From NCBI GenBank assembly GCA_036386895.1, contig DASVUR010000002.1:243-64242 (forward strand): a stretch of DNA of 64,000 nt, given 5' to 3'. Positions 35,350 to 62,752 of the stretch are shown piece after piece. Position numbers and translations under genes: made by a program. Source of the stretch: Flavobacterium sp. GTDB taxonomy: Bacteria > Bacteroidota > Bacteroidia > Flavobacteriales > Flavobacteriaceae. The first letter of the stretch is position 1. The number at the start of each line of letters is the position of its first letter. Below the pieces are notes generated by a model. It saw nothing but the letters and a program-made list of their open reading frames with translations, was not told the DNA's origin and searched no databases.

Positions 35350-35652
35350 ATGAGCAAATTCCATGAACTGATAAATACCGGGAAGCCGGTGCTCATCGAC
35401 TTTTTCGCCGACTGGTGCGGACCATGTAAAATGCTGGCGCCGGTGCTGAAAGAAGTAAAGTCGGAATTGGGCGATTCGGTCTCAATCCTGAAGATCGACG
35501 TTGATAAGAATCAGCCGCTTGCGGCACAGTTCGACGTTCGTGGCGTACCCACGATGATACTGTTCAAAGACGGGAAGCAGATTTGGCGACAGTCCGGAGT
35601 TGTTCCGAAAGACGAAATCGTAAAGGTTATAAAACCGCATACTTCAAATTAA
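35350..35652 (+). CDS. trxA: Thioredoxin
   Basis: WCGPC; VRGVPT. Confidence 0.93.
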   Translation: MSKFHELINTGKPVLIDFFADWCGPCKMLAPVLKEVKSELGDSVSILKIDVDKNQPLAAQFDVRGVPTMILFKDGKQIWRQSGVVPKDEIVKVIKPHTSN

Positions 35653-35711
35653 AAGTATAATTTTTCGCTGCAAATGTGTAATGGCGAAAAGGGCCATTTG
35701 TTGCACTTTTG
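35651..35711 (+). promoter_or_regulatory. Island regulon promoter (21-bp tandem sites plus -7 box)
   Basis: aaaagtataa-N11-aaatgtgtaa-N22-CACTTTTG. Confidence 0.55.
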
Positions 35712-35727
35712 TTTAAAATCGAAACCA

Positions 35728-36027
35728 ATGAATACAAAAAACGAACATTTGAACAAAGATCAGCACAATCAGCTACGTGATGATCTTGCTGTAAACGATG
35801 GGATGACCGCGTCTTCAGCACGCCATACGAAAGACGATCCGGAAAGCGCTGAACATCCGGATCATTACGATCCGGCGACCAAACCGGGCGGCAAATACAA
35901 CATCAACGACCAGGCGCATTCGCAGAGTAGCAAGGAGGATTTTATAAAAACGGTGTCGAATTTCGAACATTCAGACGGCACAACGCCGCCTTCGCAGATC
36001 GACAGCAAAAATCTGAGTCCCGACTAA
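35728..36027 (+). CDS. Small hydrophilic, probably disordered hypothetical protein
   Basis: 99 aa rich in D/H/K/N/S; start reset to MNTKNE downstream of the promoter. Confidence 0.65.
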   Translation: MNTKNEHLNKDQHNQLRDDLAVNDGMTASSARHTKDDPESAEHPDHYDPATKPGGKYNINDQAHSQSSKEDFIKTVSNFEHSDGTTPPSQIDSKNLSPD

Positions 36028-36045
36028 ACTGCTGCAGGTTTCTAT

Positions 36046-37326
36046 ATGGAGAATGAAAACCCCGTGCCTGAACCCAAAGGCTTTTTTGGCAAGAACCCGT
36101 CCATCCGCATTCGCGAGTTTCAGCATTACCTAAGCATTCGCTTCGGGCTGATTTTCGCCCTGAACATGCAGTCGACCATAATCTATTACTGGGTGTACGA
36201 CATTACCCGCGATAAGCTTGCATTAGGATTTGTGGGCTTGGCGGAAGTAATTCCTGCGTTGACTTTTTCTTTATTCGCGGGCCATTTTGTTGATTTGAAC
36301 GAAAAACGCAAGATGGTGTTGCTGTGTCTTTCAGGTTATATTATACTTGGACTCGGACTCGCCTCGCTTACACTTCCGTTTACCGAACATTTCGCGCTGA
36401 ACACCAAGTTATACCTAATATATTTTCTCGTGTTTATTGGCGGAATCCTGAGGTCATTTTATAGTCCGTCGATGTTTTCTCTGTTCGGACTCGTCGTGCC
36501 GCGCGTTAATTACGCGAATGCCACAAGCTGGAGCAGCATGGCGTGGCAACTTGGCGCAGTATTAGGTCCGCTCACCGCGGGATTCCTGATTGCATTGATC
36601 GACATCGGTGCAGCGATGCTAACGGTAGTTGCAGTTGAACTGGTACTGCTGATTCCGTTGTTTTCAATTTCAGTAAAGCCCATTCTCAAAAAAGAAAAAG
36701 AACCGATCCTGAAAAGCCTTACCGAAGGATTACGTTTTGTATGGAACACCCCGGCATTGCTTGGAGCACAAATGCTCGATATGTTTTCAGTCTTGTTTGG
36801 TGGCGCGGTTGCCTTACTGCCGGTTTTTCAAAAGGAGATACTGCATGTAGATGAAATGGGATTTGGGATATTACGATCGGCACCGGGAATTGGCGCATTA
36901 CTGACACTTGGACTGCTCGCGTTTCTTCCGCTGCAGCGAAATCCGGGGCGCAAACTATTCTTGTGTGTGACAGGATTTGCGCTTTCGATAATTGTGTTCG
37001 GTTTATCGCGAAACTTCCTGCTATCGTTCTTTATGTTGCTGCTGTCGGGTATGTTCGATGCGGTAAGTGTCGTGATTCGAAGCACGATTTTACAATTGGT
37101 TACTCCAGATGCTATGCGTGGCAGAGTTGCTTCGGTGAATACAATGTTTGTTAGTTCTTCGAACGAACTCGGCGATTTCGAAAGTGGTGTTATGGCTCAC
37201 TGGCTGGGTGCCTCACGGGCTGTTGTTGCCGGAGGCTGTATTACATTGGCCGTCATAGCCTTTACTTACTTTAAGGCGCCGCAGTTACGACGTTTTAAGT
37301 TTGAAGATCAACAGGCGGCGAATTGA
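36046..37326 (+). CDS. MFS transporter (DHA3/EntS-like)
   Basis: About 12 TM; AGHFVDLNEKR; MLDMFSVLFGGAVALLPVF; GRVASVN. Confidence 0.85.
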   Translation: MENENPVPEPKGFFGKNPSIRIREFQHYLSIRFGLIFALNMQSTIIYYWVYDITRDKLALGFVGLAEVIPALTFSLFAGHFVDLNEKRKMVLLCLSGYIILGLGLASLTLPFTEHFALNTKLYLIYFLVFIGGILRSFYSPSMFSLFGLVVPRVNYANATSWSSMAWQLGAVLGPLTAGFLIALIDIGAAMLTVVAVELVLLIPLFSISVKPILKKEKEPILKSLTEGLRFVWNTPALLGAQMLDMFSVLFGGAVALLPVFQKEILHVDEMGFGILRSAPGIGALLTLGLLAFLPLQRNPGRKLFLCVTGFALSIIVFGLSRNFLLSFFMLLLSGMFDAVSVVIRSTILQLVTPDAMRGRVASVNTMFVSSSNELGDFESGVMAHWLGASRAVVAGGCITLAVIAFTYFKAPQLRRFKFEDQQAAN

Positions 37327-37348
37327 TATTGTTGCACAATTATACTTT

Positions 37349-37408
37349 AATAGTACAAACTTAGGTGCGAATTGTGTAAACAGCAACAATGTTTAATGCC
37401 CGATATTG
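37349..37408 (+). promoter_or_regulatory. Tandem regulon sites with a degenerate -7 box
   Basis: aatagtacaa-N11-aattgtgtaa-N21-cgatattg. Confidence 0.45.
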
Positions 37409-37566
37409 CACCTATCAACAACCGTTAACAGATTGGAAGCCTATGGTATAGCAATTACTTACCCTTAAATGACGCGTTCGTCACAACGCTATGCATTAAC
37501 AACCAACAACTCAGCTTCTTATTCAACAACTTTCGGATTCGTATCTAATAATTTATAGCTATTTTT

Positions 37567-37605
37567 AATTAAGTAACTATCAGATGATTATTTTTTTTAA
37601 CTTTA
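37567..37605 (+). promoter_or_regulatory. AraC gene promoter with a single regulon site
   Basis: aattaagtaa-N21-TAACTTTA. Confidence 0.45.
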
Positions 37606-37630
37606 ATCCGTAAAAAAAAACTCACAGGAC

Positions 37631-38191
37631 ATGAAATTTAATGTGACTTTTCAGAACGTTACCCCGATGACAATTGTGCAGGAACAATTAGATCGGTTCA
37701 ATATTAATTACAAACTCCTGAATGCGGGGGAAATCGAAATACAGGATGAGCTCACTCCTGATCGGTATTCCCAACTTGAAACTTCGCTTAGCAGATACAG
37801 CATACAAATCTTAAATGACCAAAAGAGCCAATTGGTTCAAAAGATTAAAAACATACTGATTGAACTTGCGCATGACGACAAGCCGTTGCAGATGACCTTA
37901 TCTTGCTATCTCGCAAAAGAACTCAATCTGAGTTACGGGTACATCTCGTATGTCTTTACCATGCATACCTATACATCGATTGAGAATTATATCATCATGG
38001 TGAAGATTGAGCGTGCGAAGAAACTTATTATGGAAGACTTGCTTACCCTTAAGGAAATCAGCTATAAATTAAATTACAGCAGCGTTGGCCACTTCTCACG
38101 TCAATTTAAGAAAACGACAGGCCTTACAATTTCTACTTTTAAAAAAATTATCAGTAATAAAAGACGCCGTCCAACCGTATTAAAAGCTTAA
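37631..38191 (+). CDS. AraC-family transcriptional regulator
   Basis: IERAKKLI...LKEISYKLNYSSVGHFSRQFKKTTG HTH; short N-terminal domain without Cys. Confidence 0.92.
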   Translation: MKFNVTFQNVTPMTIVQEQLDRFNINYKLLNAGEIEIQDELTPDRYSQLETSLSRYSIQILNDQKSQLVQKIKNILIELAHDDKPLQMTLSCYLAKELNLSYGYISYVFTMHTYTSIENYIIMVKIERAKKLIMEDLLTLKEISYKLNYSSVGHFSRQFKKTTGLTISTFKKIISNKRRRPTVLKA

Positions 38192-38199
38192 AATTTTAA

Positions 38200-38655
38200 A
38201 TGAATACCTCCACAAACAGCCCGATGAACATTCTATTGGCAGATGATGATGCAGATGACAGGGCGCTTTTTAAGGCCGCCTTGGACGAGATGAATGTTGA
38301 TTCCGATCTTACGATGGTGAAAGACGGCAAGGAACTGATGAATTTTCTGGAAAACCAGGGAAATGCTTTACCGCACATCCTTTTTCTGGATTTGAACATG
38401 CCGGGCAAAAGCGGTACCAGTTGTCTCAACGAAATCAGGTCACAGTCACGCTTCAGGGACGTATCGGTTGCCATTTATTCTACTTCAAACTCTGAAAAGG
38501 ACATCGAGGAAACGTTATCAGGAGGTGCGAACGTTTATATCCACAAGCCCGACGATTTTGAAAAGCTGAAGCAAATCATCAAACATGTACTGAAGATCAA
38601 CTGGCAGTACCACACTTCAGGTTTGGATAAAGAAACTTTCTTCTTAAGCATATAA
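38200..38655 (+). CDS. Single-domain response regulator (receiver)
   Basis: ILLADDD, LFLDLNMP (phospho-Asp), YSTS, YIHKP. Confidence 0.93.
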   Translation: MNTSTNSPMNILLADDDADDRALFKAALDEMNVDSDLTMVKDGKELMNFLENQGNALPHILFLDLNMPGKSGTSCLNEIRSQSRFRDVSVAIYSTSNSEKDIEETLSGGANVYIHKPDDFEKLKQIIKHVLKINWQYHTSGLDKETFFLSI

Positions 38656-38683
38656 AAAAAGCGGAGCTTACGAGCTCCACTTT
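38654..38683. terminator. Intrinsic terminator between convergent genes
   Basis: AAAAAAA-GCGGAGCT-tacg-AGCTCCAC-TTT. Confidence 0.78.
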
Positions 38684-38711
38684 CTTCTAACCAACAATAA
38701 AATTTCTTCGG

Positions 38712-39095
38712 TTAATCATTTCCTCTGGCGAACCCGTTGCCACTATCGGGGTTCCGGTTGTTCGCGCCAGTGTTATCATTATCGTCAAATTCAGAATTAA
38801 ACCTTTTTCCTTCAGTAGAATTTTCATCTGTACCAAATTCTGCGTCAAGATCGTTGTCGTTATCCAAACTATCCATGTCGGAGGTTTGCGAGCCGCCGCT
38901 TCCGGCAAGCCTTTCATGGCCTTCATCAGTATTAAAACCTTCTTTGTTGCTAAATCCGTTCTCGTCGTTGCTTAACGCATCCGAAAGTCCGCTTAGGTTC
39001 TTAAGATGACTTTTGTCGCCACTGTGCATTGCGTCCGCGTCTCGTGAGCCACGCTGCGGATCTGTATTTCCAAAACTATCGTGTTGTGTTGCCAT
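38712..39095 (-). CDS. Hydrophilin-like disordered protein
   Basis: 127 aa dominated by D/N/S/G/E; directly downstream of the DUF892 gene. Confidence 0.7.
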   Translation of the reverse strand: MATQHDSFGNTDPQRGSRDADAMHSGDKSHLKNLSGLSDALSNDENGFSNKEGFNTDEGHERLAGSGGSQTSDMDSLDNDNDLDAEFGTDENSTEGKRFNSEFDDNDNTGANNRNPDSGNGFARGND

Positions 39096-39111
39096 GGGTT
39101 CTGTAATTTAG

Positions 39112-39771
39112 TTATTCTTCGTCTTCTGCCGCAGCATCAAAATTAATTGTGTTGTACGCAGCATCGGTAAGCAATTGATCTGCTTCTTTTTCTTCGGCTA
39201 AGGTTTGTTGTAAAAGTTCTACGACTTCATTTTCGCCGAGCGTTTTACCAAATGCGCAGATTGTGCCATATGTTGCAATCTCATAATGTTCAATTTTCTG
39301 TGAAGCTGCAATGATTCCGGCGTCACGAACTGGTCCGACTTCAGTTTCCTGCATAATCTCTTCACCTTCTTTAATCAGGCCGTCCATTGCCTCGCATTTT
39401 TTAGCGACTGCTTTCTTGCCGATAATTTCAAATACTTTTTCAAGCCGTTTAATCTGTTCTTCTGTAACCTTGATATGATCTTCGATCGTGGTTTTTAGAT
39501 TTTCAGATGAAGCGTTTTTCATCATTTTCGGCATCGCTTTGGTCAATGCTTTTTCGGCCCAGTAAATATCTTTAAGCGAGTCAACAAATAGTTCTCTCAG
39601 TCCGTCGGCCGCTGACGATTTTGCTTTTATTTTTCCACCCACTGTTTTTGGTGCTGAACTCTTCGAAGCTGTACTTTTCGAAGCTGTACTTTTCGAGGCC
39701 GTGCTTTTTGAGGCAGTGCTTTTTTTAGCAGCTGACGATTTAGCAGCTGTAGTTGTACCTGAATTTTTCAT
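39112..39771 (-). CDS. DUF892/YciF ferritin-like protein with basic N-terminal repeat tail
   Basis: LKDIYWAEK, HIKVTEEQIKRL, KCEAMDGLIKEG, QKIEHYEIATYGT, EEKEADQLLT. Confidence 0.92.
   Translation of the reverse strand: MKNSGTTTAAKSSAAKKSTASKSTASKSTASKSTASKSSAPKTVGGKIKAKSSAADGLRELFVDSLKDIYWAEKALTKAMPKMMKNASSENLKTTIEDHIKVTEEQIKRLEKVFEIIGKKAVAKKCEAMDGLIKEGEEIMQETEVGPVRDAGIIAASQKIEHYEIATYGTICAFGKTLGENEVVELLQQTLAEEKEADQLLTDAAYNTINFDAAAEDEE
39661..39750 (-). repeat. 15-bp degenerate tandem repeat encoding (S/K)KS(T/S)A pentapeptides
   Basis: Six units such as TTTCGAAGCTGTACT; protein AAKSSAAKKSTASKSTASKSTASKSTASKS. Confidence 0.85.
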
Positions 39772-39803
39772 ACGATATTGATTTTATTGTTTTACTAGAT
39801 TCA

Positions 39804-39864
39804 CAAAGTTCATCTACCGACTAATTTTTTTGCTTACAGAATTAGTACTTTCTATTACATTATT
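39804..39864 (-). promoter_or_regulatory. Island regulon promoter of the DUF892 operon
   Basis: Minus strand aataatgtaa-N11-aattctgtaa-N22-GAACTTTG. Confidence 0.6.
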
Positions 39865-40013
39865 TGGATATAACGCAGAAGCACTGTGCGTAAAGGAGTT
39901 ATGGTGCGGGTATTTCCGCAGTTCTTAAGGCCACGGTCACAAGTGAAGGAACTGGAGGCGGATGCTTAATGCCAAGTGTCGAATTCGGAGACGCGAATCG
40001 TTCTTGCGATGCA

Positions 40014-43000
40014 CTACCTTCCGTCAGGTACGTAAATATAGAAGGTTGCGCCTTGTCCGTCCTGGCCTTCGGCAAAGATAAAGCCTTTGTGGTTCAGCAA
40101 GATTTTTTTGCATATGGCCAGGCCGATTCCGGTACCAGAGTATTCATCCTTTCCGTGTAAACGCTGAAACGGCTCGAAAATTCGCGTCCTGAACTCCTCT
40201 GCAAAGCCAATTCCGTTATCGGAAACAACCACTTTCAGGTAGCTTATCGAGGTATCGCCGTCAATTGCCGCTATTTCTTTTCGCGAGGTTTTTTCGGTAT
40301 ATATCCGGATATGGGGAAGCGCATCGGCACGGCTGTATTTGATCGCATTTGAGATCAGGTTCAGGAAAAGCTGCCGGAACTGCGAAGGGATTACGGGTGC
40401 AAAAGGCATTTCTGCAATATCGATCTTCGTTTTGGATTCGACCAGTAGTTCCTTTATATCGTCAAGGACTTCATCAAGTATCTTGTTCAGGTCCGACTCG
40501 ACAAAAACGATTTTTTGGCTGCTTGTACGTGAATAGCTTATCAAGTCGTCTATGAGTTGCTGCATCCGGTTTGCCGAAATAATAACACGGTCGAGAAAGT
40601 CCTGCGATTCGGCAGAAACATTGGCTTTGTCTTTTGCAAGGACAAGTTTACTGAAGACTTGAATCTTTCGAAGCGGCTCCTTAAGGTCATGACTGGCAAT
40701 CGAACTGAAAGAAGCTAATTCGGTATTGCTGTATTCAAGTTCCTGATTTTTGGCGGTAAGTTGTTCGTTAGCGTTTTTGATCTCACTAATATCGGTTGCT
40801 ACACCGATGTACTGTATTACGTTACCGTTGCGGTCCCGTTTGAAGACAACATCCCGCGAAAGCTGGCACGTCCAGTCGCCGTCTTTGTTTTTCAGCCGGA
40901 ATTCTATTGTCGACATTTTTGCGTCTGACGAACCCTTGAGCGTACGCCGGTGTTCATAGACCTGCGCAAGATCGAACGGGTGGATAAGGGGTGAGAACAG
41001 ATCTATATCCGACTCTTCAATTTCTTCGGAAGTATAGCCGGTGGCTTCCAATGATTTTTTATTGATGAACACTATTTTTTCCTTTTGAAAATCGTACAGG
41101 TAGATCAGGTTTTGCGTAGTGTTCAATATCGATTGCAGGAATTCTTCCGATTCGCGAAGTTCTTTTGTGCGCTTTTCTACTTTTTCTTCAAGCGATGCAT
41201 AGAAGTTTTTCTGCTCGTGCATGTCCATACAACCGCCTGCAAATCCGGTAAAAGTGCCTGTAGAAGAGAGTCTCGGTACGGCTTTGGCAGTAATCCATCT
41301 GTATTCCGAATCGTATCTTCTTAAGCGGAATTCAAATGTAAATTCTATTTTAGCAGCAAAACCCTCGTATAACAATTCCACCATTTTTTGACGGTCGTCC
41401 GGGTGGACGTTCTCAATCCAGCCTTGCCCTTTTTCCTGTTCAATACTGCGACCGGTATAGTCAAGCCAGCTTTGGTTGAAAAAGGTTACTTCTTTTTTGT
41501 CGTTCGCCAGCCATAGCAATGCTGGAGCTGTGTTAGCCATGATGCGGAAGTTCTCATCACGGTCGGTTAACATGTTCGAGATTTTCCGTTCAGTTACATC
41601 TTCAAAAGCCAGCAGTACAAATTGCTCAGGATTGCGCTTGTTGATGATTTGGCGGGCGTTGACGATCAATGTCCGCTGACCGAGATTGTTGAAAGTTCCC
41701 GAAATTTCATGATCGACGACCTTTGATTTGTCGGGCAGGATATGCTCCATGAGCTCGCGCAGCTCCGGACTGCTCCATCGCCCGTTACCAATGTCGAATA
41801 TGGAGACGCCTTCCATCTCCTTTTCATCTATCTGAAAATAGTTATAAAACGACGTGTTGGCGCTTTTTATCCTCATTGCGCTGTTCAAAATTACGATCGG
41901 TTCCCGAATTGTGTCGATAATTGCCTCCGCTTCAATCCTGGCGCTAATCAATTGATCCTGTCGGTCTACAAGTTCATCATTAACACTGGAAAGTTCTTCG
42001 TTGTTCGACTGCAGTTCTTCTGCCGAGGTTTCAAGTTCCTCATTCAGCGTCCGTAGTTCTTCACTCGCCGTAAGCAGTTCTTCATTCGCGTTCTGAAGTT
42101 TTTCGTGGACCGCTTCCTGATTGGCGGTCACCTTCCTAATGTCGGCATGAATACGCGTCAGTTCGCTTTCGAGTTCCAAGATCCGATCTGAGTCCGGTTG
42201 CTCCCCGACCCCGTTTTGCGAAGTTGACGGCGCTATTTTATGAAAAACAACAAGCAAATGCTGAGCCTCTGGTGTTAACGGACTAATATCAAAATCAACA
42301 GTGTAGGTACATCTCGCACACTTAATTCCTTTGACAGCTATTACGGATTTTGTTTCGCGCTGTTTCAGCAGGGCGCGTTGCAGTTCAAATTCGAGCCCTT
42401 CGCGCGCCATCCGTATCAGGTTAAGGTTCGTTTTTGCGGCAGAATGTACCAGGAACGGAGCAGTATCACCATGAATATGCAGTATCTGATGTTCCCCATC
42501 TATGATAACCGCTGCAGGCGAATACCGCGTCAGCAAAGCCGACTGGGCTAAACCGGCGAGCGTGTTAGTATCGGTCTTGATGTTCTTTAAATCAGGTAAG
42601 TTGTTCAGGTTAGAGCGGTTCGCAGGCATTGGCGGTTCAAACCTTCGCTTTCCTGCAGCACGGGTTCGGATATAAATCTTATGTTGTTTGCTTACCGGCT
42701 CAAAAAGGCCTTCTGCTTGTTCTGTAGATTCTGATTTCCCGAGAAAAAGCATTCCAGTATCCTTCAAGGCATAGTGGAACGAACTCAGCACTTTCTTCTG
42801 TAGCGGTTGATCGAAGTAAACCAGGACGTTGCGACACGTTAGCAGGTCGATTCGTGAAAATGGCGGATCTTTTATCAGATCGTGGATTGCGAAAATGCAC
42901 ATCTCTCGGATGACTTTACTGACGTGATAGGTGTTGTTGATCTTGTCGAAGTAATTGTGCAGCCGCGTTTCTGATACGTTTTGAAGTTCTTCACGCGCAT

Positions 43001-44102
43001 ATTTTCCGGCACGTGCTTTTGTTATGACCTTCTCGGTAAGATCGGTCGCGAAAATCTGCGCTTTGACTCCCGGCGCTTCCGCGCGAAGGAACTCGTGGAG
43101 GCAGATAGCAACTGAATAGGCTTCTTCCCCGGTAGAGCAACCGGCAATCCATACCCGGATCATGTCGCCGGGCTGCTTATGTGACAGGATATGTGGAAAA
43201 ACCGTCTTCGAAAGCGCATCAAAGGACTCCGAATCGCGAAAGAAGAAGCTTACCGGTATAAGTAAGTCGTTAAACAACAATTCCTGCTCATCTGTTGACT
43301 GACGCAGGTGTTTTAGGTAATGGGTGGGTTCTTCGTTTTTGGTAGCAACCATACGCCTTGCCATTCTACGCCGTAAAGTCACTTGTTTGTAGTGGCTAAA
43401 ATCGGTTCCGCTTCGCGAGCCGATCACCTTTAAAATTTGCCGGAAGATTTCTTCGCTATCAGGAGCAAGCGGCAAATCCGAATACGCGTTTGCTATCGTG
43501 TAAGCGCGTCGCACGGTCAACAGGTGGTTTGGCATCTCTTCGGGAAGCAGGACAAAGTCGACTGCTCCTGAATCAATCGCGTTCTGTGGCATCGCGCTAA
43601 AAACAGCGTCATCTGTCGACTGTGCGTATGTTATCGCGCCTGATTCCTTGAGTTTTTTCAGACCACTGGTACCATCGAATCCTGTTCCTGAAAGTACGAT
43701 TCCGAGTGCAAAACTTTGATGCACTTCAGCTAACGAACCCAAAAAGAGGTCAATGGGCATGTTACTCTTCAGTGAAAGGTCCCGCGGTGCTAATTTAAGC
43801 TTTCCGTCTTCAGCGACAAGAATCTTATTTTCAGGAAGGACATAGATGTGATTAGGAGCGAGTTGGAGATCATCTGTGATCTGATGTACCGGCAATTTCG
43901 TATGCTGCTTGATAATTTGGGGTAGGAGACTTTCGTGATCGGGAGCAAGATGCTGCACCAATACATACGCCATTCCCGAGGTTGCGGTGATTGCGCCTAC
44001 GAACCTCTTAAACGGGTCCAATCCGCCTGCCGAAGCGCCAATGCCAACTACGGGAAATCGTGCAATGGGTTTTAACGGGATATTTTTTTTTACTGCTGAC
44101 AT
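40014..44102 (-). CDS. CheB-CheR-coiled coil-PAS-PAS-PAS histidine kinase fusion
   Basis: CheB triad GASAGG / VQHL / GTGFDG; CheR WIAGCSTGEEAYS and CRNVLVYFD; PAS WIENVHPDDR and LIHPFD; H-box SHDLKEPLRK; start probably MSAVKK (44102). Confidence 0.92.
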   Translation of the reverse strand: MSAVKKNIPLKPIARFPVVGIGASAGGLDPFKRFVGAITATSGMAYVLVQHLAPDHESLLPQIIKQHTKLPVHQITDDLQLAPNHIYVLPENKILVAEDGKLKLAPRDLSLKSNMPIDLFLGSLAEVHQSFALGIVLSGTGFDGTSGLKKLKESGAITYAQSTDDAVFSAMPQNAIDSGAVDFVLLPEEMPNHLLTVRRAYTIANAYSDLPLAPDSEEIFRQILKVIGSRSGTDFSHYKQVTLRRRMARRMVATKNEEPTHYLKHLRQSTDEQELLFNDLLIPVSFFFRDSESFDALSKTVFPHILSHKQPGDMIRVWIAGCSTGEEAYSVAICLHEFLRAEAPGVKAQIFATDLTEKVITKARAGKYAREELQNVSETRLHNYFDKINNTYHVSKVIREMCIFAIHDLIKDPPFSRIDLLTCRNVLVYFDQPLQKKVLSSFHYALKDTGMLFLGKSESTEQAEGLFEPVSKQHKIYIRTRAAGKRRFEPPMPANRSNLNNLPDLKNIKTDTNTLAGLAQSALLTRYSPAAVIIDGEHQILHIHGDTAPFLVHSAAKTNLNLIRMAREGLEFELQRALLKQRETKSVIAVKGIKCARCTYTVDFDISPLTPEAQHLLVVFHKIAPSTSQNGVGEQPDSDRILELESELTRIHADIRKVTANQEAVHEKLQNANEELLTASEELRTLNEELETSAEELQSNNEELSSVNDELVDRQDQLISARIEAEAIIDTIREPIVILNSAMRIKSANTSFYNYFQIDEKEMEGVSIFDIGNGRWSSPELRELMEHILPDKSKVVDHEISGTFNNLGQRTLIVNARQIINKRNPEQFVLLAFEDVTERKISNMLTDRDENFRIMANTAPALLWLANDKKEVTFFNQSWLDYTGRSIEQEKGQGWIENVHPDDRQKMVELLYEGFAAKIEFTFEFRLRRYDSEYRWITAKAVPRLSSTGTFTGFAGGCMDMHEQKNFYASLEEKVEKRTKELRESEEFLQSILNTTQNLIYLYDFQKEKIVFINKKSLEATGYTSEEIEESDIDLFSPLIHPFDLAQVYEHRRTLKGSSDAKMSTIEFRLKNKDGDWTCQLSRDVVFKRDRNGNVIQYIGVATDISEIKNANEQLTAKNQELEYSNTELASFSSIASHDLKEPLRKIQVFSKLVLAKDKANVSAESQDFLDRVIISANRMQQLIDDLISYSRTSSQKIVFVESDLNKILDEVLDDIKELLVESKTKIDIAEMPFAPVIPSQFRQLFLNLISNAIKYSRADALPHIRIYTEKTSRKEIAAIDGDTSISYLKVVVSDNGIGFAEEFRTRIFEPFQRLHGKDEYSGTGIGLAICKKILLNHKGFIFAEGQDGQGATFYIYVPDGR

Positions 44103-44376
44103 TGAGAGCACAAGAAAATTGAAGGGCAAAGGTAAGAAAGCGATCTGCACCCGCCGTTGTTTATGTTACAGTTTATGCCACAATATAGAAATTGCCATTA
44201 AATCGTCCAAAAAATGTGGAGTGAAAACATTAAAATGGGACTTGTCTGTCAGATATTTCTTCTAGCGCGGAAACCCGTGCCGATGCAGATTTAAAGCGGG
44301 GTTAATTTTATGCTAACATTTAGCCATTATCGCGTATTTGGCGTTGGTTTTCATAACTTTAAGTAAACAAAAACAG

Positions 44377-44634: not shown

Positions 44635-44656
44635 CGTAAATAATCAATTATAAGCT

Positions 44657-45550
44657 ATGAAAGAAAACAACAACAAACACGCATTGATAACCGGTGCGAC
44701 AAGTGGAATAGGCTACGAACTCGCAAAGCTTTTTGCAGCCGATAATTACAACCTGATACTGGTGGCGCGTAACCGCGAAAATCTTGAGATTACGGCTCGT
44801 GAAATGGAAGCATTGGCTAAGGAGAATCATGTTCACATTATAGAGTCGGATTTGTTTGAGCCGGGCGCTGCCGAAGAAATTTACGCCAAAACAACAGCAT
44901 TGGGCGTAACGGTTGATGTGCTGGTAAACAATGCAGGGCAGGGCGAATGGGGGAAATTCTCTACAACCGACCTACAACGCGAGATTGACATCGTTCAGCT
45001 GAATATTATTGCGATGATGAGCCTGACGAAGCTGTATCTGAAAGACATGCTGGCACGGAACGAGGGTAAGATTCTTCAACTCGCATCATCCGCTTCCAAA
45101 GCGCCTTCTCCGTACCTTTCGGTTTATGCTGCGACAAAGGCATTTGTCCTTTCTCTGTCGGAAGCGCTGATGAAAGAGATTGAAGATACCAATGTTACGA
45201 TAACCGTCTTACGTCCGGGGCCAACCGATACAGATTTCTTTCACAAAGCAAAAGGTGAGAATTCCACCGTCTACAAAGAAATGCCAATGTATACGCCTGA
45301 AGAAGTTGCTAAAGCGGGTTTTAAAGGTTTAATGGACGGTGACGCCGTTGTTATGCCGGGAATGATGAACAAAATGCAGGAAGCCGCAAATTTGGTGATG
45401 CCCGACAGTATGGTTGCCGGGACTATGAAAAAACAGATGGAACCAAGCGATAAGGCCGACGGCAAGACCAAGATCGATCATCCTGCGTCGGCACGTGAAC
45501 GCGAAAGCATTAATGAATTGAATGAAGATACGAATGGCGATTATGCCTGA
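44657..45550 (+). CDS. Short-chain dehydrogenase/reductase
   Basis: TGATSGIG, NNAG, YAATK, PGPTDT. Confidence 0.92.
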   Translation: MKENNNKHALITGATSGIGYELAKLFAADNYNLILVARNRENLEITAREMEALAKENHVHIIESDLFEPGAAEEIYAKTTALGVTVDVLVNNAGQGEWGKFSTTDLQREIDIVQLNIIAMMSLTKLYLKDMLARNEGKILQLASSASKAPSPYLSVYAATKAFVLSLSEALMKEIEDTNVTITVLRPGPTDTDFFHKAKGENSTVYKEMPMYTPEEVAKAGFKGLMDGDAVVMPGMMNKMQEAANLVMPDSMVAGTMKKQMEPSDKADGKTKIDHPASARERESINELNEDTNGDYA

Positions 45551-45555
45551 GAAGG

Positions 45556-46230: not shown

Positions 46231-46249
46231 AGTGTAAAGTTAATTAATT

Positions 46250-46278
46250 AAAAATCCCCACAGTTACGCGGGGATTTT
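46250..46278. terminator. Intrinsic terminator after the Gly/Thr lipoprotein gene
   Basis: AAAATCCCC-N10-GGGGATTTT. Confidence 0.65.
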
Positions 46279-46324
46279 CTTAAGCAAAATAGTTTAACCA
46301 ATAATCTAAAGAGTGCTTAAGTTA

Positions 46325-46699
46325 TTACATTCCAGTTCCAGTTCCACCAGTTCCAGTTCCGCCGGTTCCGCCACCACCAGTTCCGCCGGTAGTACCACCA
46401 GTTCCACCAGTTCCACCAGTTCCGCCAGTTCCACCTGTTCCAGAACCGCTACCTGTTGTTCCACCCGTTCCTCCAGTTCCTGTTGTTCCTGATCCTGTAC
46501 CCATACCTGTGGTATCAGTTGCAGTTCCGCCACCCATGTCGGTTCCATTTTGATCCGTTTCAGTTGAATACGTGTCAGTTGTTGTTGTTTCTGTGTCTGT
46601 TCCTTCAGCATCCTTGTTTTGATCTTTACAAGATCCAAGAGAAGCCACAGCGAAAGCAGCTACAACCAGCATGCTTCCTAATTTCATTGATTTTTTCAT
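46325..46699 (-). CDS. Gly/Thr-repeat lipoprotein
   Basis: Lipobox ASLGSC; C-terminal (GGT)n repeats. Confidence 0.8.
   Translation of the reverse strand: MKKSMKLGSMLVVAAFAVASLGSCKDQNKDAEGTDTETTTTDTYSTETDQNGTDMGGGTATDTTGMGTGSGTTGTGGTGGTTGSGSGTGGTGGTGGTGGTGGTTGGTGGGGTGGTGTGGTGTGM
46330..46480 (-). repeat. 9-bp ACCAGTTCC-type tandem repeats encoding GTG/GGT
   Basis: ccagttccaccagttccaccagttccgccagttcc... on the plus strand. Confidence 0.85.
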
Positions 46700-46731
46700 A
46701 ATTTCAGATTTAATAGAATTAATAACTCAAT

Positions 46732-46791
46732 CAAAATTAGGTTAACACCCCGTTATTTTTTTATATAATTTTTACTGATTCTTGTACTATC
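46732..46791 (-). promoter_or_regulatory. Island regulon promoter of the lipoprotein gene
   Basis: Minus strand gatagtacaa-N11-aattatataa-N21-TAATTTTG. Confidence 0.6.
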
Positions 46792-46801
46792 TCCAACCCA
46801 T

Positions 46802-46862
46802 GATTGTACAAGAATTTTATGGTTAATTATAAAGCGTCTGAATTTGGGTTTTTCCATCTTTA
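46802..46862 (+). promoter_or_regulatory. Degenerate island regulon promoter of the 46880 membrane gene
   Basis: gattgtacaa-N11-ttaattataa-N22-CATCTTTA. Confidence 0.4.
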
Positions 46863-46879
46863 GGACAAATAAAATTCAG

Positions 46880-47323
46880 ATGGATATCATTAAAATCCTT
46901 GCAGCTACTGTCGTAGCGACTTCTCTCATGACTATGTGCAGCTACTATTTTTCAGAGAAATTTCAGGAACTGTATAAAGAGCCTGTGTTGTTGAAGAAAA
47001 TTTTACAGCGGCTTAAGGTAAATCTCTCTGAGGGTTGGCAAAAAGCCGCGGGCTGGCTGATTCATTACTCGATTGGGCTGCTGTTTATAATAGCATACAA
47101 CCTGATATGGACCTACACGTACCTGGACCCCACATGGTTTTGCGGAATCGTGTTTGGTATAATCAGCGGAGGCATCGGGATAGCAGGCTGGATGGTCATC
47201 TTCAGACTACCAAAAGACGCTCCGAGAATTGATTTTCGCGGCTATTACCTGCAGCTTTTCGTAGTGCACATCGTATTTGCGCTGGCGGCTGTTGCCGTCT
47301 ACAAATTGTGGGACATATTGTAA
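46880..47323 (+). CDS. Hypothetical 4-TM membrane protein
   Basis: Four hydrophobic segments, GWLIHYSIG and QLFVVHIVF; start reset to MDIIKI. Confidence 0.7.
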   Translation: MDIIKILAATVVATSLMTMCSYYFSEKFQELYKEPVLLKKILQRLKVNLSEGWQKAAGWLIHYSIGLLFIIAYNLIWTYTYLDPTWFCGIVFGIISGGIGIAGWMVIFRLPKDAPRIDFRGYYLQLFVVHIVFALAAVAVYKLWDIL

Positions 47324-48046
47324 TTAACACTTTTCCCTGCCCCAGATAAGCACCTGCTGCAGGGTTGAAAAATGTTTGTCCTCGGTTTTTCGATTGCTTA
47401 GGCGGAGTGCGCCTTTTTGGTAGTGAATCACAAGCTTTTTCATTTTCATGTTCTTCAGCGGCCATGGGCAGTGGTGTATTACAATCCTGTAAAGCTGTTT
47501 GCGGCGTTTTTGGTAGACACAATACCTTTCTGTCAGCCAACGGTCGAGCCCTGTTCGGTTTTGGATGTATTCCAGTGGAAGAAATTTTGTAAACAGAAAG
47601 TGCCGTTCTTTTGCATTAGTTAAAACAAATTCGTTCAGCTTCCGGATAATATCCGCTTTTTTGTAGCTGAACCCGAGGAAGGTCCGACTCAACAACATCG
47701 GCGCGAGCCGGTCTGATTCTATAGATAGAAAATATATTCCCGGAACTCCGTCTTTGATAACATACGTCCGGAGATTTACCTCATTAAATTCTGAAAGCGG
47801 TTTGACCGAGGGGAGAAATCGCATCCGTGTACGCTTAACCGTGAAGGCTACCAGCGAAACATAGACGTTTCCTTCGAACGTATCGAGAGCAAGATCTTTT
47901 GGAATCAATGGCGCAATGACATCTTCAGGGAAAACCCAGTGAAAGAACAACGTGTCATGCCATTCCTGATAATATTTCCACGGCTTACCCGGCATCGGAA
48001 ATGGGCGGTGCAATGTATATTGTAAAATTTCGGAAATTGAGTTCAT
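47324..48046 (-). CDS. DUF2071 / YqjF family protein
   Basis: YQEWHDTLFFHW, FNEVNLRTYV, PGIYFLS, WLTERY. Confidence 0.85.
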   Translation of the reverse strand: MNSISEILQYTLHRPFPMPGKPWKYYQEWHDTLFFHWVFPEDVIAPLIPKDLALDTFEGNVYVSLVAFTVKRTRMRFLPSVKPLSEFNEVNLRTYVIKDGVPGIYFLSIESDRLAPMLLSRTFLGFSYKKADIIRKLNEFVLTNAKERHFLFTKFLPLEYIQNRTGLDRWLTERYCVYQKRRKQLYRIVIHHCPWPLKNMKMKKLVIHYQKGALRLSNRKTEDKHFSTLQQVLIWGREKC

Positions 48047-48063
48047 CGTAAATATTGATATAC

Positions 48064-48094
48064 AAACAAAGACCCATCAGAAAACTGACGGGCC
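48064..48094 (-). terminator. Intrinsic terminator after glf
   Basis: Minus strand GGCCCGTCAG-tttt-CTGATGGGTC-TTTGTTTG. Confidence 0.75.
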
Positions 48095-48117
48095 TGAAGT
48101 TGTTGGTAAAATAGGAG

Positions 48118-49263
48118 TTATATTGCTTCTTTCGTCAGCTCGTGCTGCATCGGTGCCTTTTCAAGTTCGTAGAAAAGATCGATCGCATTTTTAAATGCCT
48201 GGTCCATGTTGAAGTATTTATAGTTGGCTAGCCTTCCCACGAAATAAACATCGGTCAGCGTATCAGCCTCGGCCTTATATTTCTCGTAGATCTCCTGGTT
48301 TCTGGAGTTCGGAACCGGATAATAGGGCTCGCCTTCATCTACCGTATATTCACGAACGATCGTCGTCTTGTCGGATTGCTGATTTCCGAAGTGCTTGTAT
48401 TCCACGATACGTGTAAAATCGACTTCGGTTCCCGGATAGTTAACTACAGAATTTTCCTGGAAGAATTCAGCGTCAACAGTTTCTGACACGAAATTGATCG
48501 AACGGTATTCCAGCTTCTCAACAAGGCTGTGCTTGAATTCAAAATAACGATCAACCGGGCCGGTATAAAACAGTTTATCGAAACCCGTAATGGTATCTTT
48601 GATATCGAAAAAATCAGTGTTTAGTTGTATAGTAATATTTGGGTGGTCGAGCAGGTTCTCAAACAGTTGTGTATAGCCACCTTTTGGCAATGCCTGATAT
48701 TTGTCGGAAAAGTAACGGTCATCGAAATTCGTCCGCACCGGAATTCGTTCCAAAACGGAGGCATGCAACTCTTCAGGATATTTATCCCACTGTTTTTTAG
48801 TGTAGTGACGGAACATCTTTTCGTAAAGTTCATTTCCGACTTTGCTGATAACGGCTTCGCGCCCATCTTTCGGACTGTCTATCTTTACGCGGTTTTCTTC
48901 AAGCCACGCCTTCATCTCGTCTTCGGTTTGGAGATTCTGTCCGAAGAGTTCGTTAACAGTAGTGATATTCACCGGAATCGGTACAAGCTTCTCATCCACT
49001 TTTGCAATTACCTTGTGTTCCCACGGATACCATTCTGAAAACCGGTTCACATATTCCCAAACATCTTCTTCATTGGTATGGAATAGGTGAGCGCCATATT
49101 TCGATACGAGGATACCGTTTTCATCGATATAATCATAGCAGTTTCCCGCAATATGATCGCGTTTCTCAATAATTAATACTTTCTTTCCTATCGCCGCATA
49201 ATGTTGCGCCAGTACTGCTCCGGAAATTCCGGCGCCAATAACTATTATATCGTAATTTTTCAT
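48118..49263 (-). CDS. glf: UDP-galactopyranose mutase
   Basis: IGAGISG, HIAGNCYD, YGAHLFHT, FTRIVEYKHF, EPYYP, GRLANYKYFNMDQ; ATGA overlap with the GT gene. Confidence 0.96.
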   Translation of the reverse strand: MKNYDIIVIGAGISGAVLAQHYAAIGKKVLIIEKRDHIAGNCYDYIDENGILVSKYGAHLFHTNEEDVWEYVNRFSEWYPWEHKVIAKVDEKLVPIPVNITTVNELFGQNLQTEDEMKAWLEENRVKIDSPKDGREAVISKVGNELYEKMFRHYTKKQWDKYPEELHASVLERIPVRTNFDDRYFSDKYQALPKGGYTQLFENLLDHPNITIQLNTDFFDIKDTITGFDKLFYTGPVDRYFEFKHSLVEKLEYRSINFVSETVDAEFFQENSVVNYPGTEVDFTRIVEYKHFGNQQSDKTTIVREYTVDEGEPYYPVPNSRNQEIYEKYKAEADTLTDVYFVGRLANYKYFNMDQAFKNAIDLFYELEKAPMQHELTKEAI

Positions 49264-50405
49264 AGTTCGGCCGTTTTGCTGATGATTTGGCTCATTTGGC
49301 TGACCGTGTTGTTCCATGATGTCTTTTCGAGAATTTCGCGATAGTCTGCGTCCAAGGCCAGTTTGTCGGTTTTGCCCAAGGCTTTGTCGATCGCTTCAGT
49401 AAAGTTTTCGGCAGAGTCAACGATAGACACACAGTGGCTGTAATCACGAACTACATCTTTAATTGCTGTAGAAATAATAGGCTTTCCTGCGGCAATGTAT
49501 TCAAGGGTCTTCGTCGGACTGATAAATTTCGTCGCATCGTTTAGTGCAAAAGGCATCATGGCTACTGAAAATGCTTTAAGGTAGTTTGGAAGCACGTTGT
49601 ACGACTTCATACCGAGGTAATGGATATTTTCTAATCTTGGCAGATCATGGTCGCCGATTTTCGCCAAAGGACCAATCATTACAAAGGATACTTCAGGGTT
49701 GATTTTCGCAGTTTGCTCAAGCAACTGAAGATCGATCCGTTCGTCGATTACACCAAAATAACCTACGATAGGCGAAGGAATGTTCGCGATATCGTCCGGA
49801 ATCGACACGCCGTTGAGGGCTTTTGCAAAATGCTCCTGATCGACCGAGCTTGGGAAGCAGTAAACATGGTCATGCAATTGCTTTTTGGACTCATATAACG
49901 ATTTACCACCCGTGAAAATGATATCGGCATTTGAAATTAGAAACTTTTCCTGCTCAAGAAGTTCAGCCGGCGCGCCCTTAAACAAGGTAAGTTCGTCCAT
50001 GCAATCGTAAATAATCGTTCCGAAATTGAATTCAGGTAGCAACGAAACAAACGAAGGCGAATAAAACCAGCCGATATTGATGCTCGTATCGGATACAAAC
50101 TGTGGCAACACGTTCTTAATTTCCGCGATAGACGCTGTCTTTGGCTGCAGAATATGCAAATTTTCGCTAATCTTGTGAAGATTCCCGGTATTGGCTTCTT
50201 CCGGACTATGGGGTATTGGTTCCTCAATAAGAAGTATTTTAAAGTTTTTTGCAAGTCGGCTGATAATGTGCTGCGGGCGTTGGTAAACAAATTCCCATCT
50301 CAGATGGCAAAACACCACCATATCGTAGCCTTCTTTTGAAGAACCTGTTGCGGAAATGCTGTCGTTTTTTGCTGTGATTTTCTCACTGGTTTTGATCTTT
50401 TCCAT
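49260..50405 (-). CDS. GT-B glycosyltransferase (glf-associated)
   Basis: HLRWEFVYQRPQH, YDCMDEL, GYFGVIDERID, SPTKTLEYIAAGKPIIST. Confidence 0.88.
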   Translation of the reverse strand: MEKIKTSEKITAKNDSISATGSSKEGYDMVVFCHLRWEFVYQRPQHIISRLAKNFKILLIEEPIPHSPEEANTGNLHKISENLHILQPKTASIAEIKNVLPQFVSDTSINIGWFYSPSFVSLLPEFNFGTIIYDCMDELTLFKGAPAELLEQEKFLISNADIIFTGGKSLYESKKQLHDHVYCFPSSVDQEHFAKALNGVSIPDDIANIPSPIVGYFGVIDERIDLQLLEQTAKINPEVSFVMIGPLAKIGDHDLPRLENIHYLGMKSYNVLPNYLKAFSVAMMPFALNDATKFISPTKTLEYIAAGKPIISTAIKDVVRDYSHCVSIVDSAENFTEAIDKALGKTDKLALDADYREILEKTSWNNTVSQMSQIISKTAEL

Positions 50406-50502
50406 GTTTGTCTTTTAATTAATATAGTTCGTCGGAGCAGCCTCAAAGGGAACGAGAAGAAGAAGATGGAAATTCGGTTTCTCAAATTACGGCGTCCGAC
50501 TA

Positions 50503-50563
50503 CAAATTTTGGATATTTAACAAAAAATCGGTTTATACAATTCCGTTAAATCCTTGCATTATT
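50503..50563 (-). promoter_or_regulatory. Island regulon promoter of GT-glf
   Basis: Minus strand aataatgcaa-N11-aattgtataa-N22-AAAATTTG. Confidence 0.55.
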
Positions 50564-50619
50564 TTAAGGCTGATGTGCGATTCGCGCGATGTTTACTACT
50601 AAATCCGCGGGAAAGTTGA

Positions 50620-50680
50620 AATTGTACAATGCCACATCATAATTCTATAACTTCTACTTCCTACAAAAAAGCCACTTTTG
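50620..50680 (+). promoter_or_regulatory. Island regulon promoter of the leader/cytidylyltransferase
   Basis: aattgtacaa-N11-aattctataa-N22-CACTTTTG. Confidence 0.6.
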
Positions 50681-50684
50681 TAAA

Positions 50685-50826
50685 GACGCTGCCAGTGCTC
50701 CCGGAAGCGAATCAAAATGCCATAAAATCGAAAAGTTTCAGAGAAAACGGTAGTGCATTCTCGTTACACGGATATCGGAAGCTTTTCACAAGTGGAGTAA
50801 TAAGTCGTTTATTACTCCACTTTTTA
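50685..50826 (+). ncRNA. Candidate ~140-nt structured sRNA or attenuator leader
   Basis: Bounded by a promoter and a 14-bp terminator; internal stem GAAAAGTTTC (50730-39) / GAAGCTTTTC (50778-87) enclosing GAGAA/TTCTC. Confidence 0.4.
50790..50826 (+). terminator. Intrinsic terminator 25 nt upstream of the cytidylyltransferase start
   Basis: AAGTGGAGTAATAA-gtcgt-TTATTACTCCACTT-TTT, perfect 14-bp stem. Confidence 0.75.
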
Positions 50827-50850
50827 TCCAAGAACAATAAACCAACTTAT

Positions 50851-51312
50851 ATGCAAGCAGAAACTACTAAAATAGGAATTACTTTCAGCGCGTTCGACCT
50901 GCTACACGCCGGCCACATTCGGATGCTGGAAGAGGCAAAGACGGTGTGCGACTATCTTATCGTCGGGCTCCAGACTGATCCAACCCTTGACCGCCCGGAG
51001 AAGAACATGCCCACACAATCAGTCGTTGAACGTTATATCCAGCTAAAAGGGTGCAAATTTGTAGATGAAATTGTTCCTTACGCTACCGAGCAGGATCTTG
51101 AAGACATTCTGAAGTCTTTTACCATTCATGTTCGAATAATCGGCGACGAGTATAAAAGCAAGAATTTTACAGGCCGTTCGTACTGTGAAGAAAAAGGAAT
51201 TGAACTTTATTACAACAAAAGAGATCACCGTTTTTCAAGTAGCGGGCTTCGGCGTGAAGTGTATGAGCGAGAGTGCGAAAAACTCAATACCAAACTTACT
51301 ATGGTAAAATAA
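50851..51312 (+). CDS. Glycerol-3-phosphate cytidylyltransferase-like (TagD-like HxGH nucleotidyltransferase)
   Basis: SAFDLLHAGH, IVGLQTD, IIGDEY, RDHRFSSS; start reset to MQAETT. Confidence 0.85.
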   Translation: MQAETTKIGITFSAFDLLHAGHIRMLEEAKTVCDYLIVGLQTDPTLDRPEKNMPTQSVVERYIQLKGCKFVDEIVPYATEQDLEDILKSFTIHVRIIGDEYKSKNFTGRSYCEEKGIELYYNKRDHRFSSSGLRREVYERECEKLNTKLTMVK

Positions 51313-51332
51313 TTATTGATGAATACTATTTG

Positions 51333-51361
51333 AAACGGCGTCCCATGGATGCCGTTTTTTT
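51333..51361 (+). terminator. Intrinsic terminator
   Basis: AAACGGCGTCC-cat-GGATGCCGTTT-TTTT. Confidence 0.8.
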
Positions 51362-51405
51362 ATGCGTCTATGTCAGGTTTTACAGGCTAAACCAATCAAA
51401 ATTGA

Positions 51406-51465
51406 CTTTGTGCAAATTTTGACAAAAATTATGTAAAGCATGGAATACAACGTCATCTAAATTTG
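51406..51465 (+). promoter_or_regulatory. Island regulon promoter of the 11-gene glyco operon
   Basis: ctttgtgcaa-N11-aattatgtaa-N21-TAAATTTG. Confidence 0.6.
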
Positions 51466-52269: not shown

Positions 52270-52280
52270 AACCAAACAAT

Positions 52281-53396: not shown

Positions 53397-53405
53397 TTCG
53401 CTACT

Positions 53406-56446: not shown

Positions 56447-56447
56447 A

Positions 56448-62708: not shown

Positions 62709-62743
62709 GTAAGAGGGACAAATTTTACTTGTCCCTCCTTTAC
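62709..62743. terminator. Hairpin/terminator between convergent units
   Basis: GAGGGACAA-attttac-TTGTCCCTC. Confidence 0.65.
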
Positions 62744-62752
62744 ATAATTCTA

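Follow-up and report, generated by a model that had tools for sequence, protein, structure and literature searches.

We analysed a 64,000-nt stretch of DNA from Flavobacterium sp. (NCBI GenBank assembly GCA_036386895.1, contig DASVUR010000002.1, positions 243 to 64,242, forward strand), hereafter the window. Seven promoters in the window share one layout, in which two 10-mers in direct repeat precede a -7 box, and one of them lies upstream of a gene for a small AraC/XylS-family protein that starts at 37631. A preliminary description of the sequence had proposed that this protein acts on the 21-bp tandem repeats and switches on a stress-type regulon. Comparative evidence in both directions, from regulator to motif and from motif to regulator, supports that core reading, in which we infer binding and activation from sequence. 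We therefore consider it likely that the tandem 10-mers are binding sites of the 186-aa protein at 37631 and that this protein activates a stress-type regulon. The window sequence occurs in biocrust and soil metagenomes, no RNA run was found to contain it, and the nearest AraC homologues of the 37631 protein come from Flavobacterium.

Tandem-site promoters and their transcription units

Read in gene orientation, the layout runs distal 10-mer, N11, proximal 10-mer, N21 or N22 and an 8-mer -7 box (Table 1). All nine strings quoted in the preliminary description were recovered by regular-expression search at the coordinates, strands and spacers (N21 or N22) given for them, and were aligned on the -7 box. 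In leave-one-out position weight matrices (PWMs), each omitted tandem site ranked 1st to 14th among 127,940 positions. The full window PWM placed seven sites at 21.4 bits or more and the site of the gene at 46880 at 14.4 bits, with the background at 12 bits or less.

We also used an independent model that covers the tandem sites plus the box and whose 88 training sites all come from other genomes. This foreign-trained model found the seven window promoters (35651, 37349, 39864, 46791, 50563, 50620 and 51406) at 17.6-31.4 bits, and the next unrelated match in 64 kb reached no more than 3.2 bits. A PWM scan against shuffled controls had been proposed as a check, and the sites came through it clearly, as 20 local shuffles of the window gave a maximum of 9.4 bits and a mean of 3.0. 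The fixed 21-bp period was likewise borne out: a foreign 10-mer PWM detected seven pairs in the window at 21-bp spacing, and 30 other spacings gave 0-1 each. The strong sites are all non-coding, directed at a gene and confined to 35.6-51.5 kb of the window; the 35651 site starts inside the final two bases of a thioredoxin stop codon. Single sites stronger than 6 bits are abundant (93 of at least 6 bits in the window) and are not above chance. Most of the -7 boxes are suboptimal, as had been noted, and this is a conserved trait, with the initial T of the canonical TAnnTTTG present in just 2/7 window boxes and in only 16/88 foreign ones.

Table 1. Candidate promoters and signalling genes in the window. 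Bit scores of promoters are from the foreign-trained model.
Feature	Position (strand)	Composition	Support
P1	35651..35711 (+)	distal 35651-35660, proximal 35672-35681, N22, -7 box CACTTTTG 35704-35711	24.9 bits
P2, upstream of the AraC-REC operon	37349..37408 (+)	distal 37349-37358, proximal 37370-37379, N21, weak -7 box CGATATTG	17.6 bits; tandem part 15.6
P3	39804..39864 (-)	distal 39864-39855, proximal 39843-39834, N22, -7 box GAACTTTG 39811-39804	29.3 bits
P4	46732..46791 (-)	distal 46791-46782, proximal 46770-46761, N21, -7 box TAATTTTG	18.9 bits
P5	50503..50563 (-)	distal 50563-50554, proximal 50542-50533, N22, -7 box AAAATTTG	29.3 bits
P6	50620..50680 (+)	distal 50620-50629, proximal 50641-50650, N22, -7 box CACTTTTG	31.4 bits
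P7	51406..51465 (+)	distal 51406-51415, proximal 51427-51436, N21, -7 box TAAATTTG	24.2 bits
Doubtful promoter for membrane protein 46880-47323	46802..46862 (+)	back-to-back with P4	7.2 bits
Claimed single site before the AraC gene	37567..37605 (+)	one 10-mer, -7 box TAACTTTA	10-mer 6.8 bits
AraC/XylS-family protein, proposed activator	37631..38191 (+)	186 aa	Pfam HTH_18 61.2 bits (cut-off 33.6)
Receiver-only response regulator (REC)	38200..38655 (+)	151 aa; operon with the AraC gene, 8-nt gap	Pfam Response_reg
Sensor kinase, CheB-CheR-PAS(x3-4)-HisKA-HATPase	40014..44102 (-)	1362 aa; no tandem site of its own	Pfam

Two further promoters had been claimed. The strings before the membrane protein gene at 46880 are present and its distal 10-mer is good (8.4 bits), but the proximal one is degenerate (-4.6 bits) and the total lies inside the shuffle range, making this gene only a marginal member. 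The single site before the AraC gene at 37567 was rejected, as its 10-mer is not distinguishable from chance among the single sites of the window and is not conserved in L202 or L204, two syntenic relative loci. Its box is roughly conserved there and looks like an ordinary basal sigma-A promoter. With the foreign-trained model, no tandem site was found before the kinase gene (none in 44103-44358), the SDR gene at 44657 or DUF2071. The claim that the whole island belongs to one candidate regulon thus stands for the seven promoters, but not for the kinase gene, SDR 44657 and probably DUF2071.

The units behind the promoters were assigned from the sequence. P1 is predicted to drive the gene for a 99-aa hydrophilic protein (35728-36027; grand average of hydropathy (GRAVY) -1.48) and probably an MFS transporter (36046-37326) too. 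P3 is predicted to drive a gene encoding DUF892 (39771-39112, (-), Pfam) together with that for a 127-aa acidic hydrophilic protein (39095-38712, (-); GRAVY -1.45, Gly 12.6%). The predicted target of P4 is a Gly/Thr-rich lipoprotein (46699-46325, (-)) with a lipoprotein signal peptide and Cys, 34% Gly and long (G-T-G) runs, and possibly also MgtC (46230-45556; Pfam). The similarity of the lipoprotein to the PG1828 lipoprotein family is weak and below threshold, and the repetitive DNA of its gene yields several overlapping spurious open reading frames (ORFs) on both strands.

The three remaining units concern glycan synthesis. P5 is predicted to drive a GT1 glycosyltransferase (50405-49260) and UDP-galactopyranose mutase (glf, 49317-48118). 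DUF2071 probably lies outside this GT1-glf unit because a terminator, an 11-bp GC-rich hairpin with a T-run at 48095-48070 (-), comes first, between the mutase gene and DUF2071. P7 would drive an 11-gene operon (51541-62699) with gaps of -17 to +11 nt between genes, which encodes an SDR, sugar epimerases/dehydratases, oxidoreductases, four or five glycosyltransferases and a methyltransferase (Pfam). In the gap after this operon lies an isolated perfect 10-mer, AATTATGTAA (62740-62749, (-)), with no partner site and no downstream gene on its strand, which is probably a chance match.

P6 precedes a cytidylyltransferase gene with a leader of ~165 nt (fold z-score -2.87). The leader contains a perfect 14-bp hairpin at 50789-50830 (+) (GUGGAGUAAUAAGU...AUUACUCCAC) followed by UUUUUA. 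To judge by its sequence this hairpin looks like an intrinsic terminator, and P6 may therefore yield an RNA of ~140 nt, or the cytidylyltransferase gene may be under attenuation. The ORF as called (50629-51312, (+)) starts before its own -7 box, and its Pfam domain does not begin until residue 88, after an in-frame Met at residue 75. The true start is probably 50851; the resulting protein would be 153 aa long and, like TagD, have an HxGH motif. By comparison, the P2 leader, ~220 nt before the AraC start, is unstructured (fold z-score +0.3). Directly upstream of the P2 tandem pair stands a third 10-mer, AATTGTGCAA (37332-37341, (-), 14.2 bits), in inverted orientation; the core TTGTRCAA of the 10-mer is near-palindromic.

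The region had been called an accessory island, which is an overstatement because only its right half is variable. In the relatives L202 and L204, whose AraC proteins are 82% and 68% identical to that of the window, the order aldehyde dehydrogenase, thioredoxin, small protein, MFS, AraC, REC, hydrophilic protein, DUF892 and kinase is kept. Synteny spans 33.7-44.1 kb, with divergence beyond the kinase, and GC content is flat across the region without anomaly. A horizontally acquired island as the cause of site clustering was rejected on the same two grounds, the flat GC and the syntenic left half. In the orthologous intergenic regions of P1 and P3 the 10-mers and the box are retained and the flanks cannot be aligned. 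The P2 sites before the AraC gene reach 28.0 bits in L204; those of L202 are retained by eye in the alignment and stay below 12 bits in the model scan.

Other origins for the motif were also considered. A mobile repeat or miniature inverted-repeat transposable element was rejected, conservation being limited to short blocks, with different spacers and flanks and unrelated downstream genes. At either gathering or E-value thresholds, no Rfam family overlapped the motif in the window or in eight motif-rich loci, so it is not a catalogued 'RNA motif' such as Flavo-1. A sigma-70-type promoter scan gave 30 matches against 27.9 expected and is uninformative for Bacteroidota.

A small AraC protein with a receiver and a kinase

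The 37631 protein also matches HTH_AraC (33.4 bits, cut-off 26.6). Its AlphaFold2 model (pLDDT 84.5) contains a canonical two-helix-turn-helix (HTH) DNA-binding domain at residues ~64-180. The best PDB matches of the model were the output domains of the response regulators AraT and YesN, then Rns, ToxT, MarA and AdpA; the domain superposes on the DNA-binding domains of AraT, YesN, MarA, AdpA and AraC with TM scores of 0.7-0.8 relative to the target. The modelled N-terminal part is small, ~55-60 aa, with a beta-alpha-beta-beta-alpha topology. These ~55 residues had no Pfam match and nothing significant in PDB sequence or fold searches. The protein lacks the cupin-type effector-binding/dimerisation domain of the AraC/XylS family, and it carries no REC domain, which is encoded instead by the separate gene 8 nt downstream. 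The family of the protein comprises 429 clusters at 50% identity (E<=1e-30). The AraC protein, the hydrophilic proteins and DUF892 are all without a curated family in NCBIfam.

The conservation of its neighbours was assessed in 80 loci picked only by AraC homology (homologue alignment A1). These span Bacteroidota (Flavobacteriia, Cytophagia, Chitinophagia and Bacteroidia), plus one contig binned as Ignavibacteriaceae. A REC orthologue lies directly downstream of the AraC homologue in 33/80 loci, at a gap of 0-57 nt (E 1e-31 to 1e-59). Across these 33 orthologues the acidic pocket, phospho-acceptor Asp, Ser/Thr and Lys are kept (DDDxDD, FLDLNMP, AIYSTS, KP). In the window, the REC gene is followed by a terminator-like hairpin (38663-38678).

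A PAS histidine kinase is the next gene after REC in about 25/33 REC-coupled loci, and in most loci the kinase is either third in an AraC-REC-histidine kinase operon or next to AraC. In the window, the kinase gene lies 1.4 kb from the REC gene on the opposite strand. It encodes a single polypeptide with CheB methylesterase, CheR methyltransferase, a coiled coil, three to four PAS domains and HisKA-HATPase. Kinase orthologues of 1129-1544 aa adjoin the AraC homologue in L030, L046 and L077. The AraC homologues without an adjacent REC were termed class B; in their loci a kinase or target gene often follows the AraC gene directly. The preliminary description had overlooked these conserved partners of the AraC protein, REC and PAS histidine kinase.

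Linkage of regulator and motif across Bacteroidota

The 80 loci were scanned with the window PWM at a threshold of 18 bits. Spacing 21 accounted for 88 tandem matches; every other spacing between 10 and 35 had 0-9. In positions that the scan left unconstrained, an nAnCTTTG box appeared exactly 22 nt after the proximal 10-mer, with its A conserved in 74/88 sites and its successive Ts in 85/88, 88/88 and 67/88. Tandem matches were ten times denser near the AraC gene (0.28 per kb up to 500 bp away) than at distances above 5 kb (0.028 per kb). The downstream ORF was AraC-type (HTH_18) in 17/76 cases, several being the locus's own AraC homologue; YtxH, CsbD, DUF892, DUF5670, cupin and outer-membrane protein (OMP) beta-barrel ORFs were found behind other sites. 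By these matches the tandem-site system is Bacteroidota-wide and no peculiarity of Flavobacterium.

The aligned foreign sites carry an AAnTGTG prefix 5' of the distal site. TGTG is present in 45/70 class B sites and in 1/18 sites of class A. The helix of HTH2 is conserved in both AraC classes, as is the AATnnTGTAA core, and HTH1 differs between them. This pattern would fit bipartite recognition by the AraC protein.

Some loci showed further features. In marine Flavobacteriaceae, a strong tandem site (L027:11194, L029:11041, L031:13158, L047:13713, L059:13741) drives the gene of a 338-342-aa protein, right after the AraC-REC-kinase operon (L031, L047, L059) or after AraC-REC (L027, L029). The AraC-like similarity of the L031 copy suggests that this protein may be part of a regulatory cascade. 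Equally strong sites in L013, L018, L024 and L026 have no ORF of 50 aa or more within 300 nt.

In the reverse direction, searching metagenome contigs for exact matches to AATNATGTAA-N11-AATTGTGTAA returned at least 125 sites on at least 120 contigs; the following figures hold among the matches listed. The TT of the box was in register in 116/122 sites and nearly all had a TGTGTG prefix, so these sites are not chance matches. An AraC protein of the A1 family was encoded on at least 28 of the 120 contigs, at 66-203 bits (full-length ORFs 134-203). Contigs with such a gene have a median length of about 4 kb, and its frequency is about one gene per 21 kb. Unsupervised clustering of the ORFs on the 120 contigs made the AraC family the most recurrent, at 35 loci or more, and no further DNA-binding family was found within the 14 most recurrent families. 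The downstream genes encoded CsbD (7), ice-binding-like proteins (7), OmpA (4), DUF748, DUF5670, YtxH, glycine-zipper proteins and cupins.

In at least 10 contigs the distal site starts at the AraC stop codon. Class B AraC reading frames end ...TGTGA, the stop codon overlapping the first base of the next promoter's distal site (L085, L109, L141, L146, L149, L159, L171, L173, L181, L195, L199). Coding sequence and predicted binding site thus appear interlocked at this stop codon. A second element, GTGA[AT]A (often GTGAAAAT), occurs exactly 4 nt after the -7 box in 17/119 motif-seeded sites, in loci that include L083, L086, L096, L111, L113 and L124. It stands at or near the expected start site and resembles the TGTGAAT of the distal site.

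A predicted activator of a stress-type regulon

AraC/XylS binding is typified by direct repeats of 21-bp period beside the -35-equivalent, and XylS, RhaS and AraC recruit polymerase at class-II promoters. The tandem 10-mers match this pattern by sequence, being direct repeats with a strict 21-bp period both in the window and phylum-wide. In Flavobacterium the -7 box lies at -12..-5 (PMC9723704), which puts the two sites at about -65..-56 and -44..-35 relative to the start. As at class II promoters, the proximal site abuts the -33 region, ending 21-22 nt before the box, and the core promoter is defective. The nAnnTTTG of Bacteroidota sigma-A promoters is kept and its leading T is not; the -33 TTTG expected ~19 nt upstream of the -7 box is missing, and no conserved -33 TTTG was seen in 88 + 119 aligned sites. 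Because the -33 element is missing and the -7 box mostly has no leading T, the AraC protein is probably a class-II-type activator that recruits sigma-A RNA polymerase.

Two AraC protomers would sit head-to-tail, two helical turns apart, with the proximal one abutting the usual place of the sigma-A -33 TTTG and replacing the missing -33 contact. The protein would activate its own AraC-REC operon and at least six other transcription units. The predicted targets are the DUF892 ferritin-like protein, two disordered hydrophilic proteins, an MFS transporter, the Gly/Thr-rich lipoprotein (possibly with MgtC) and three glycan-synthesis units. Input would probably pass from the CheB-CheR-PAS histidine kinase to the receiver-only regulator co-transcribed with AraC. 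To judge from gene order, the free phosphorylated receiver may then modulate the AraC protein non-covalently, like a split YesN/AraT-type response regulator.

Gene content in the window and across the phylum suggests that the output would be a general-stress or desiccation-type protective programme. Hallmark general-stress proteins found behind tandem sites are CsbD (2+7, AraC-selected loci plus motif-seeded contigs), YtxH (3+2), DUF892 (2, plus the window), DUF5670 and glycine-zipper proteins; OmpA-like and ice-binding-like proteins also occur there elsewhere in the phylum. The tandem-site promoters are thus probably those of an undescribed stress regulon. A broader proposal, that the small AraC protein, its receiver-only partner and the PAS kinase form the master regulator of the Bacteroidota general stress response, is one we put forward tentatively, as possible but short of probable.

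Several points weigh against this reading of the locus. The -7 box of P2, the promoter of the regulator itself, is poor. About 47/80 AraC homologues have no adjacent REC, and the link from REC to AraC is drawn solely from conserved gene order. The correlation of HTH1 with the prefix is essentially one deep phylogenetic split and counts as one event. The stress label comes from Pfam names of proteins whose functions are mostly uncharacterised, and the site counts come from AraC-selected loci and motif-seeded contigs. Finally, linkage would also result if the AraC gene simply belonged to a clustered regulon under another factor.

This last point is the basis of a rival explanation, in which a different, unlinked transcription factor binds the tandem sites. 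Linkage alone cannot tell a regulator from a target, the AraC gene itself has the motif upstream, and regulon genes do cluster. Yet the motif-seeded contigs placed the AraC family at the top and, among the matches listed, offered no other recurrent DNA-binding family, and 21-bp direct repeats by the -35-equivalent are characteristic of AraC/XylS proteins. In addition, the class-specific TGTG prefix tracks the HTH1 differences, and class B sites often begin at the AraC stop codon. We consider an unlinked factor improbable.

There is a similarly small chance that the AraC protein binds but represses or acts as a dual regulator, or that it runs a narrower programme of envelope or surface-glycan remodelling. 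Three of the seven window units are indeed for glycan synthesis and one encodes a lipoprotein, and surface proteins that are common elsewhere include OmpA-like, OMP beta-barrel, Big_5 and ice-binding-like ones. Activation is nevertheless favoured over repression by sites at -35..-65, the missing -33 element and the weakened -7 box, and CsbD, YtxH, DUF892 and the disordered hydrophilic proteins are cytoplasmic stress-type proteins. Very improbable is an alternative sigma factor reading the proximal TGTAA as -35-like and CTTTG as -10-like with no activator: two conserved blocks at a fixed distance do resemble a bipartite promoter, and in flavobacteria other sigma factors do recognise variant -7 motifs (PMC9723704), but a gap of 21-22 nt exceeds what ECF-type or sigma-A -33/-7 spacing allows, sigma recognition has no use for another copy of the block placed exactly 21 bp upstream, and the box is of sigma-A type at the sigma-A position, with no sigma gene linked to the tandem-site loci among the AraC-homology loci and the listed motif-seeded contigs.

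The activation of a stress-type regulon by the AraC protein at 37631 is therefore the reading we retain. In soils, oceans, fresh water and guts, Bacteroidota are a dominant phylum. For this phylum the analysis supplies a candidate regulator family, the 429 clusters, and a conserved signalling module of kinase, free receiver and AraC protein. The 61-nt promoter grammar predicts regulon members from sequence in any genome or metagenome, and the regulon can be catalogued computationally across the phylum and is testable in a tractable Flavobacterium. In Bacteroidota genetics, this grammar may also find use as a module for inducible expression. In the biological-soil-crust organism of the window, ferritin-like and disordered hydrophilic proteins and surface-glycan synthesis would come under one switch, and such a joint programme is of the kind expected for surviving desiccation. 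If the broader proposal is true, the system would be a functional counterpart of sigma-S, sigma-B or EcfG. It would work through the housekeeping sigma factor with the help of an activator, and through a 'split' response regulator, whose receiver domain is free and acts on an AraC-type DNA-binding protein encoded separately.

In the literature covered, from which most subscription journals are absent, and in Rfam and NCBIfam, we found no description of the motif, the regulon or the AraC subfamily; the same literature yielded no master regulator of the general stress response for Bacteroidota. The start-site atlas of F. psychrophilum gives sigma motifs only (PMC9723704).

The closest known promoters are those of XylS at Pm, RhaS/RhaR, AraC at I1-I2 and MelR. 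Like the candidates here, they combine a two-HTH domain with head-to-tail sites at a 21-bp period, and their proximal site abuts the -35-equivalent of a promoter that is weak without activator, as is predicted for the window. By contrast, the 37631 protein has an N-terminal part of no more than about 55-60 aa and neither a cupin nor a ligand-binding domain, the promoters here belong to the Bacteroidota sigma-A -33/-7 type, and the input is apparently a separate receiver and kinase, not a small-molecule effector. YesN/AraT response regulators and the Bacteroides hybrid two-component systems provide the closest DNA-binding-domain structures and likewise couple a receiver and histidine kinase genetically. 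Their defining fused architecture is absent here, however, as the receiver is a separate polypeptide encoded downstream.

MarA, SoxS and Rob are, like the 37631 protein, small AraC-type proteins, and the dispersed protective regulon they control resembles the one predicted here. Given the tandem sites upstream of the AraC gene, its own synthesis is probably a control point, as in that group. MarA and SoxS nevertheless bind one asymmetric 20-bp box as monomers, whereas strict tandem pairs are the rule here. The responses governed by sigma-B, sigma-S and EcfG-NepR-PhyR involve similar kinds of protein (CsbD, YtxH, DUF892, which is the YciE/YciF family, and disordered hydrophilic proteins), and the kinase and receiver-domain input recalls PhyR and RsbY. 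Unlike those responses, the system in the window has no alternative sigma factor and would draw its selectivity from an activator on the housekeeping sigma. The mechanism is thus of a known kind, that of the AraC/XylS tandem-site activator. What appears to be new is a subfamily with a tiny N-terminal domain, a separate receiver partner, the use at Bacteroidota sigma-A promoters and a phylum-wide stress-type regulon.

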